Positions 28,635-29,066 are shown, counted from the first letter of the stretch. The stretch is DNA of 64,000 nt from an uncultured Acidobacteriota bacterium (GCA_963822445.1 CAWGHO010000002.1:1056001-1120000); one strand, 5' to 3'. Translations and numbers: made by a program. The notes: generated by a model from the sequence alone, not told the origin.

Positions 28635-28663
28635 GAATTGAAAATTGAAAATTGAAAATTGAA
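28635..28663. repeat. Left arm G(AATTGAA)4 of the 29-bp inverted repeat enclosing the four-helix-bundle gene
   Basis: gaattgaaaattgaaaattgaaaattgaa. Confidence 0.95.
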
Positions 28664-28671
28664 AACGGTCT

Positions 28672-29049
28672 TCATGAACGTTCCTTCGTCTTTCGCACGA
28701 TTGTGGTGAGGATGGCGATGAGTTCGGTCGCTTCGTTGATCAGCGGATTGATTTGCTTCTCGCCTTTCAGCAACCTTGCAAGCGCGCGCAGCCAATATCT
28801 CGCTTCCCGAGCTTCTTTCAGAGCAATCGTGCACTTTGAAATGAAATCGGCGCGACTCTGGGCAGCGTCGGCTTCCTCGAGATTGGCGCCGACGGAACCA
28901 GCAGCATTCGCGGCTTGAAAACTCGCGCTCCGCAGAGCAGGCTCGCGCCGGTAGATCAACCGGTGCAACTCGAGCACAGCGCAAGCGAACTCGAACACAC
29001 GTTCGCGCAGCTCCGAGCCCTTCCCTGTTTCCTTGTCTTCAATTTTCAA
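28672..29049 (-). CDS. Four helix bundle protein (23S rRNA IVS-encoded / bAvd-like family)
   Basis: ELRERVFEFA...AAGSVGANLEEADAAQSRADFISKCTIALKEAREARYWL...EATELIAIL. More A/T-ending codons than neighbouring genes. Confidence 0.88.
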   Translation of the reverse strand: MKIEDKETGKGSELRERVFEFACAVLELHRLIYRREPALRSASFQAANAAGSVGANLEEADAAQSRADFISKCTIALKEAREARYWLRALARLLKGEKQINPLINEATELIAILTTIVRKTKERS

Positions 29050-29066
29050 TTTTCAATTTTCAATTC
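29038..29066. repeat. Right arm (TTCAATT)4C of the inverted repeat
   Basis: ttcaattttcaattttcaattttcaattc, the exact reverse complement of 28635-28663. Confidence 0.95.

Follow-up and report, generated by a model that had tools for sequence, protein, structure and literature searches.

A PF05635 gene between inverted heptamer arrays in a 2-aminophenol 1,6-dioxygenase operon: a probable member of a widespread cassette class built like 23S rRNA intervening sequences

In a 64,000-nucleotide stretch of DNA from an uncultured Acidobacteriota bacterium (GCA_963822445.1 CAWGHO010000002.1:1056001-1120000, hereafter the window) we analyzed a 432-bp segment, positions 28635 to 29066, that lies between amnB and amnA, the genes for the two subunits of a 2-aminophenol 1,6-dioxygenase. 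The segment holds one small gene of the PF05635/TIGR02436 family ('23S rRNA intervening sequence protein', S23p), enclosed by inverted tandem arrays of a heptamer. Coding in this stretch is entirely on the minus strand, along which the order is the end of a 304-aa open reading frame (ORF), G(AATTGAA)4, a 125-codon ORF, (TTCAATT)4C, six bases and the ATG of a 474-aa ORF. A previous sequence-only reading of the window had described a perfect 29-bp inverted heptamer repeat around the ORF and had proposed a mobile cassette resembling an intervening sequence (IVS). The repeat search of the window recovered arms at 28635-28666 and 29035-29066, 32 nt each, 97% complementary and with 368 nt between them. 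The perfect core is indeed 29 nt (28635-28663 and 29038-29066), and the full pairing, which extends to 29035 and 28666 and includes a single G-U as its 30th pair, gives a stem of 29-32 bp. The 21-nt triple heptamer, with up to 3 mismatches allowed, matches the window four times, always within the two arms, where 0.00 matches are expected (100 shuffles). This expectation and the 1 in 148 shifted controls described below rule out a chance origin of the arms, which are AT-rich relative to the genome (64% G+C). The observation as a whole is confirmed and is far from chance.

On the transcript, the 5' arm (29038..29066, minus strand) carries a TGA every 7 nt and hence stops in all three frames. It supplies the stop of the amnB-like gene (29055..29053, a TGA inside the first heptamers, giving ..GIEN*) and the only in-frame start of the enclosed gene, a TTG at 29049. 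The 3' arm (28635..28663, minus strand) contains no stop codon and ends 6 nt before the downstream ATG. These features of the arms had all been read correctly from the sequence. The proposed TTG start stands in part: it is the only in-frame start, located in the third heptamer, but all 11 other AATTGAA-armed orthologues use an ATG after the arm, at most about 18 nt past it, and the window copy lacks that ATG.

The enclosed, or cargo, gene (28672..29049, minus strand) was assigned by profile, sequence and structure matches. Its 125-aa product matches PF05635 with E 1.6e-13 and 51.2 bits (cut-off 33.8), TIGR02436 with 69.3 bits (cut-off 24) and, by sequence, PDB entry 2RLD, which has five chains, with E 1.6e-18. 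The AlphaFold2 model (pLDDT 91.1) has helices at residues 8-35, 37-61, 66-93 and 100-123, and Foldseek matches it to 2RLD (TMq 0.77-0.81) and 2GSC (TMq 0.60-0.71). The description of the gene as encoding a four-helix bundle is thus borne out by Pfam, NCBIfam and the predicted fold. The suggested structural kinship to Avd, the accessory protein of diversity-generating retroelements (DGRs), is reflected in the same fold being returned by Foldseek (4DWL_E and 8UB7_E, TMq 0.69 each), though as a weak match (E 0.13-0.27). In the motif quoted for the family in the available text of PMC3936711, GxxRxxxSxxxNxxE, the S52-x3-N56-x2-E59 part is present in the cargo and E59 is invariant in alignments A1 and A2, with the R position N/A in the window protein. 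Orthologues of the AATTGAA-armed type have a median dN/dS of 0.11, at a dS of 1.75 that is near saturation and with 51 of 66 pairs usable, and cargo identity is 67-76% where that of the beta subunit is 89-95%. Given this low dN/dS and the lower identity than the beta subunit, the cargo is a functional, fast-evolving protein: it is under purifying selection and evolves much faster than its neighbours.

The genome of the window, an assembly of 6.0 Mb in three contigs (C1 to C3) that is 94.7% complete, encodes six PF05635 proteins, and all six genes lie between inverted tandem 7- or 8-mers with exact inverted matches of 12 to 31 nt. The six units all differ (AGTCGTT, CGAGGGA, GGTTGCGG, GCAGAAT, GAAGGCA and AATTGAA), and the proteins are 20-52% identical and therefore not recent copies of one another. 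A palindrome census of the same genome (Tandem Repeats Finder, period 7-9, at least 2.5 copies, with an inverted partner of the same unit within 600 nt) gave 277 inverted tandem-unit palindromes built from 45 canonical units. Their loops are bimodal in length: 270 are shorter than 100 nt and gene-less, none falls between 100 and 299 nt, and seven measure 300-398 nt. Five of these seven long-loop palindromes hold a PF05635 gene, one holds an ORF with an ABM domain and one has no recognisable ORF; the sixth PF05635 cassette is absent from the census because of mismatches in its arms. The palindrome without a recognisable ORF (C2:654246-654687, L208, unit AGTAATG/AGTGATG) has a 398-nt loop and, at either end, small hairpins; it is possibly the remnant of a cassette.

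Gene-less siblings accompany the gene-bearing units in the same genome: 29 for AATGCAG, 26 for AACGACT, six for AATTGAA, five for AACTCAGC and two for AAGGCAG. The 29 AATGCAG hairpins have uniform arms (four units plus GAA), and in several of them an arm directly adjoins a neighbouring gene at its TGA stop or at its start (CAT, on the reverse strand). A search with the AATTGAA pair gave 36 matches with at most 1 mismatch, and the reversed control pattern gave 0; besides the window cassette these matches are hairpins of the form (AATTGAA)n-loop-(TTCAATT)n at six other intergenic sites. A lone AATTGAA arm whose partner was not found lies at C2:804800. Two of the AATTGAA hairpins, C3:620444-620511 and C3:640719-640790, have similar flanks that by appearance resemble tRNA 3' ends, and each has one AATGCAG unit, which belongs to another family, within its AATTGAA array. 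An orthologous empty site for the gene-less hairpin C3:816331-816440 was not found in relatives, where its flanks are not adjacent, and the query mostly collected other hairpins. Two genes, a Ku gene (C1:380963-382484, L209) and a gene of the deoxyhypusine synthase family (C2:2339608-2340809, L210), each lie between two complete single-unit palindromes (AAGGCTCA and GGGTTACG, respectively). In our judgement these are not cargo but ordinary genes, each with one hairpin in the intergenic gap before it and another in the gap after it.

The association of the gene with its arms extends well beyond this genome. We used one of the paralogue proteins as query and collected 80 loci from species-representative genomes, 79 of which had enough flanking sequence. 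The hosts belong to several classes of Acidobacteriota and to Planctomycetota, Chloroflexota, Proteobacteria and Bacteroidota; among them are Burkholderiales, a Rudaea, 'delta proteobacteria' and a Muribaculaceae. The flanking inverted repeat scores at least 14 in 66 of the 79 relatives and in 1 of 148 controls, which were pseudo-genes moved 900 nt within the same loci, and nearly all the arms have a period of 7. At least one of the 13 relatives under the threshold is cut by a contig end. Heptamer arms were likewise found in all 12 metagenome relatives of the window protein, where the arm unit drifts with protein identity: AATTGAA at 61-68%, RATTGAG or AATTGGG at 51-58%, AATGTAG at 49%, GAATTAG at 46% and AAATTAA at 43%. 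Inverted 7-mer arrays had been proposed as a feature to look for around other members of the family, and they are present in all three sets. The analysis supports the core of the sequence-only reading, an IVS-like cassette lodged without harm at a gene junction, and shows that it applies generally.

The amnB/amnA junction itself can be followed across the genus. The beta-subunit gene is present in 32 of 34 other genomes of the genus, and both neighbours could be placed at 28 loci, including that of the window. Of these junctions 18 hold a gene-bearing cassette, 7 are empty, and one each has an internally deleted cassette, a hairpin of another unit and an unrelated 91-nt spacer. Occupied junctions have gaps of 427-511 nt except for one of 750 nt (L048, in G006), which is about 250 nt beyond the others and has its extra sequence after the cargo gene. 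At the 7 empty junctions the two genes overlap as TTGA, GTGA or ATGA, the stop-start overlap that had been predicted for the state without the cassette. The cassette leaves its neighbours intact and clean empty orthologous sites exist, in agreement with non-disruptive insertion at a junction; the gene is not fixed in all amn operons. The internally deleted copy (L052, in G030) has AATTGAA arms around a 115-nt loop that keeps the first ~15 and the last ~5 cargo codons, and thus represents an internal deletion at the same site. At the junction of G011 (L054) there is a gene-less GAAGGCA hairpin with ATGA on both sides. The arm units vary by species (AATTGAA, AATTGAG, GATTGAG and AATTGTG); in every case the 3' and 5' arms of a cassette match each other. 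One of the 18 occupied junctions (L047, in G025) and some repeat counts (G002, G025) come from genomes flagged as unpublished, and no conclusion rests on these.

In the tree built from the flanking genes, lineages with an empty site are nested among occupied ones: the empty G022 and G026 have G019 and G018, respectively, as their sisters, and the empty G007 falls inside a 99/99 clade of occupied genomes. The cargo tree has two clades, A (AATTGAA arms, n=12) and V (variant arms, n=6), separated by a split of 100/100 support and a distance of about 1.1 substitutions per site. Inner cargo groups ({G013,G028}, {G004,G009,G031} and {G018,G024}) agree with the host tree, on which the A and V clades are interspersed. 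Hosts that are near relatives of those with AATTGAA arms thus carry, at this very junction, a sister cassette that is deeply diverged and has variant arms. These trees indicate that within the AATTGAA lineage the cassette is inherited vertically. The empty sites appear to be secondary losses, the cassette having been cleanly lost several times, and we read the trees as a record of cassette lineages that were exchanged, or sorted from an old polymorphism, at the amnB/amnA junction.

Repeat counts in 35 genomes of the genus link the cassette at this junction to the dispersed hairpins of the same genome. AATTGAA arms are present at the site in 13 genomes (12 with an intact cassette plus the deleted G030), and each of these has 12-306 AATTGAA pair matches. 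Among the variant-armed genomes, 5 of 6 have at most 1 such match and 4 of 6 have more than 130 RATTGAG pair matches. AATTGTG arrays number 66 in G024, 48 in G010, 10 in G018 and at most 9 in all others, and exactly those three genomes have AATTGTG cassette arms, G010 belonging to a different host clade from G024 and G018. The composite order of units in the cassette arm of G024 recurs in several of the dispersed hairpins of that genome. The genome-wide hairpin unit thus tracks the unit of the resident cassette across species.

The 432-bp segment is probably one representative of a class of selfish DNA cassettes that is widespread and shares its design with the ORF-bearing intervening sequences of 23S rRNA. 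One cassette would consist of a PF05635 gene and the inverted arrays around it, with a unit of 7 nt or sometimes 8 nt, and its arms would be kept alike by copying or conversion at the DNA level. The cargo protein would act on its own repeat arms for the spread or upkeep of the element, and many of the gene-less hairpins would be derivatives or copies of cassettes. Once transcribed, the stem of 29-32 bp would probably be cleaved by RNase III, an incidental effect that would split the amnB, cargo and amnA messages from one another. A broader proposal, which we put forward only tentatively, is that PF05635 proteins read tandem 7-8-nt repeats in a sequence-specific manner and, with host enzymes, copy or maintain their own arms, so that the cassettes would be transposase-less mobile elements. 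Their decay products and copies would then be the dispersed heptamer repeats of many phyla, and the members in rRNA would be the classical IVSs. If this were true, related cassette lineages could take one another's place at a junction, which may be what happened between lineages A, V and a third unit at amnB/amnA.

Several observations weigh against the selfish cassette explanation. We saw no mobility enzyme or transposition intermediate, the sole ORF of the cassette being that for the 125-aa helical bundle, and inspection by eye of the junctions and hairpins examined, which were not searched systematically, revealed no target-site duplication. Five genomes (G007, G008, G022, G017 and G014) hold 43-143 AATTGAA pair matches and have no match to the protein at E <=1e-15, and in the genome of the window the families AAAGGCTC (20 hairpins), ACCGCCT (19) and ACTGCCT (15) have no gene-bearing copy. 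Hairpins can therefore persist without the protein. The unit-tracking counts overstate their support because the genomes are kin and not independent. The loops of the 29 AATGCAG hairpins (10-47 nt) are unrelated in sequence, unlike those of miniature inverted-repeat transposable elements (MITEs), so that simple internal deletion of one master cassette fails as an explanation. One 8-mer palindrome (GTTGCTGA; C3:1661433-1661785, L207:271-558) holds the 95-aa ABM-domain ORF mentioned above (PF03992, E 2.4e-5), and the arms can therefore box another small gene. Finally, the window cargo, lacking the ATG of its orthologues, may be poorly translated.

The most serious alternative, which we nevertheless regard as unlikely, is a function at the RNA level. 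The stem would form in the amn transcript, its excision by RNase III would release the cargo mRNA or tune the ratio of the subunit messages, and spread as DNA would be secondary. The size and architecture of the element favour this explanation, as the IVS in helix 45 of Coxiella burnetii 23S rRNA, which is excised by RNase III, has 428 nt and a 28-bp stem, compared with 432 nt and 29-32 bp here (PMC4990558, available text). The formation of a long RNA stem had also been proposed from the sequence, and in the predicted minimum-energy fold the arms are indeed fully paired (-175.8 kcal/mol, z -3.7, with 0 of 100 shuffles as stable). The 30th arm pair is the G-U noted above, and the cassettes are all sense-oriented within transcribed junctions. 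An RNA stem under selection should favour G-U over A-C mismatches on the transcribed strand, but transition mismatches in the arms of 66 cassettes, scored on the sense strand, are 37 G-U versus 37 A-C, and those in the 270 gene-less hairpins are 246 versus 223. Nor is there a bias per hairpin, 50 of the 138 hairpins with at least 2 transition mismatches being of a single type versus 48 expected. Selection on the stem through strand-specific tolerance of G-U was therefore rejected for both sets, and no RNA-level selection on the stem is seen. In the Coxiella case, moreover, the excised RNA is degraded quickly and the S23p ORF is probably not translated, the protein apparently not being made, according to the available text of PMC4990558.

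The reading of the segment as IVS-like thus holds for its size, its stem, its clean junction and its generality across the family, but the mismatch counts give no support for selection on an RNA stem. A variant unit in one arm has its counterpart at the symmetrical position in the other, and the arms are probably kept alike by a DNA-level process, the RNA stem being a consequence and not the selected feature. Cleavage of the transcribed stem by RNase III is likely. A single RNA run (0.05 share of words, contigs) covered no more than a 32-nt heptamer arm and, with about 91% agreement, a 195-nt part of the beta-subunit gene, and is uninformative for processing; the flanks of that arm are unlike those of the window, and it therefore comes from another locus.

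We find it improbable that the paralogues form a host regulatory system, in which they would be repeat-reading regulators, the same-unit hairpins at gene boundaries would be their regulon (terminators, roadblocks or RNA-stability elements) and their own arms would serve autoregulation. Each paralogue does have its own unit and up to 29 same-unit hairpins at gene ends, several of which abut TGA stops or CAT starts, the cargo is under purifying selection, and the cassette is kept at one site across much of the genus. However, the copy number of one unit ranges from 0 to about 300 pair matches among species of the genus, large hairpin families lack a cognate gene, the junction can be empty, occupied or hold another unit with no change in the flanking genes, and neither the loop sequences nor the sites of the hairpins are conserved. 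Lastly, we consider it very improbable that no dedicated mobility is involved, the heptamers arising by slippage and being mirrored by fold-back template switching while PF05635 genes are enriched between them as short, dispensable and tolerant genes: the unrelated loops, the unrelated ABM gene in one palindrome and arms that mirror exactly, as local inverted duplication would give, fit such an origin, but five of seven long-loop palindromes and all six PF05635 genes coincide in a 6-Mb genome, the gene-arm association holds across phyla, one family has 29 dispersed copies with uniform arms, and the composite unit order that dispersed hairpins of G024 share with the cassette argues for copying from a common source rather than independent local birth.

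The genes on either side of the cassette were identified as follows. Upstream on the minus strand, the 304-aa product of the gene at 29053..29967 is the beta (catalytic) subunit of 2-aminophenol 1,6-dioxygenase (3VSG_B, E 2e-132); its C-terminal tail is shortened relative to orthologues and ends inside the arm. The downstream gene (27204..28628, minus strand) encodes the alpha subunit of the same enzyme, fused to a domain like RidA and 2-aminomuconate deaminase (474 aa). Residues 5-267 match 7TXY_A (E 4.5e-54), and the RidA domain then has matches that include 2-aminomuconate deaminase 6IZH (E 4.6e-23). As these neighbours match the full length of solved beta and alpha subunits, the description of the cassette as wedged between two subunits of one enzyme was right. 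The two parts of the alpha-RidA fusion are joined by a linker of about 70 residues and are separate chains in solved systems. An aldehyde dehydrogenase gene of the same operon (29952..31376, minus strand) has a stop that overlaps an internal ATG of the beta-subunit gene (ATGA).

Among known systems the closest likeness is to the ORF-bearing IVSs of 23S rRNA (Coxiella burnetii, and Leptospira as cited in PMC4990558), which have about 430 nt and a stem of 28-32 bp formed by terminal inverted repeats around a PF05635 ORF. The available text of PMC4990558 also describes their distribution as sporadic, notes that they have long been suspected to be mobile or selfish, and cites an earlier suggestion, by Ralph and McClelland (1993), of a role of the ORF in mobility. 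They differ in lying within an rRNA helix (9, 25 or 45), whereas the cassette here lies between protein-coding genes of an operon and is accompanied by hundreds of gene-less hairpins built from the same units as the cassettes. The arms of the cassette here are tandem heptamers.

Cyanobacterial short tandemly repeated repetitive (STRR) sequences are dispersed heptamer repeats. Others are described for Xanthomonas (unit GGGAATC, 70-75 convergent inverted pairs per genome; PMC4692102, available text) and for Beggiatoaceae (unit TAACTGA; PMC4679880, available text). Like the arrays in this genus, dispersed bacterial heptamer repeats are intergenic tandem 7-mers, often in inverted pairs, with a lineage-specific unit and copy number. 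The available text of these two articles draws no link to PF05635 (the terms 'intervening', 'four helix', 'S23' and 'IVS' are absent from it), whereas in the genome of the window a PF05635 gene resides between the arms of each of six units. Our literature searches gave no published link between PF05635 and heptamer arms outside rRNA, though the supplements of PMC3936711 and PMC10910872 might list such loci. The available text of PMC3936711 reports 18 genes of the family inside cas loci, for example between cmr3 and cmr2, and does not mention repeats.

The pairing of a gene-bearing element with short gene-less copies that have common terminal inverted repeats, and the internal deletion derivative in G030, recall autonomous transposons and their MITEs. 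The cassette differs from these in having no transposase, no target-site duplication seen by eye, gene-less copies with unrelated interiors, and arms that are tandem arrays of a variable unit. Repetitive extragenic palindromes and bacterial interspersed mosaic elements (REP/BIME), which are associated with the Y1 transposase RayT, are similarly abundant intergenic hairpin DNA, and the genome of the window has four Y1_Tnp-like ORFs, all on contig C2. None of these is linked to a cassette, and instead of a single conserved palindrome that has a fixed foot the cassette arms are tandem 7-8-mers of many units. Avd acts on nucleic acid in concert with an enzyme, and the cargo is predicted to have the same four-helix-bundle fold. 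The available text of PMC10053308 relates the PF05635 family to Avd. The DGR comparison is limited by the weakness of the fold match and by the lack of template or variable repeats, and no match to the reverse transcriptase domain RVT_1 was found in the whole genome of the window at its 94.7% completeness. This argues against a DGR-like or reverse-transcriptase-driven mechanism, and a DGR-like or telomerase-like origin of the arrays was rejected on this ground.

Structures have been solved for members of PF05635/TIGR02436, a very large family that has no known function. The ORF-bearing IVSs of rRNA have been unexplained since about 1990, and the excess of intergenic heptamers in several phyla is likewise unexplained. 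The locus, the genome and the genus analyzed here tie the protein family, the rRNA IVSs and the heptamer repeats together as testable statements. For annotation, the cassettes break translational coupling in operons, and their arms can be mistaken for other classes of repeat. If the selfish cassette explanation is correct, the protein would be expected to bind its own unit, and the element would be expected to excise cleanly, to decay to hairpins and to be replaced at its site; for these expectations the genus offers occupied, empty, deleted and swapped alleles of a single junction.

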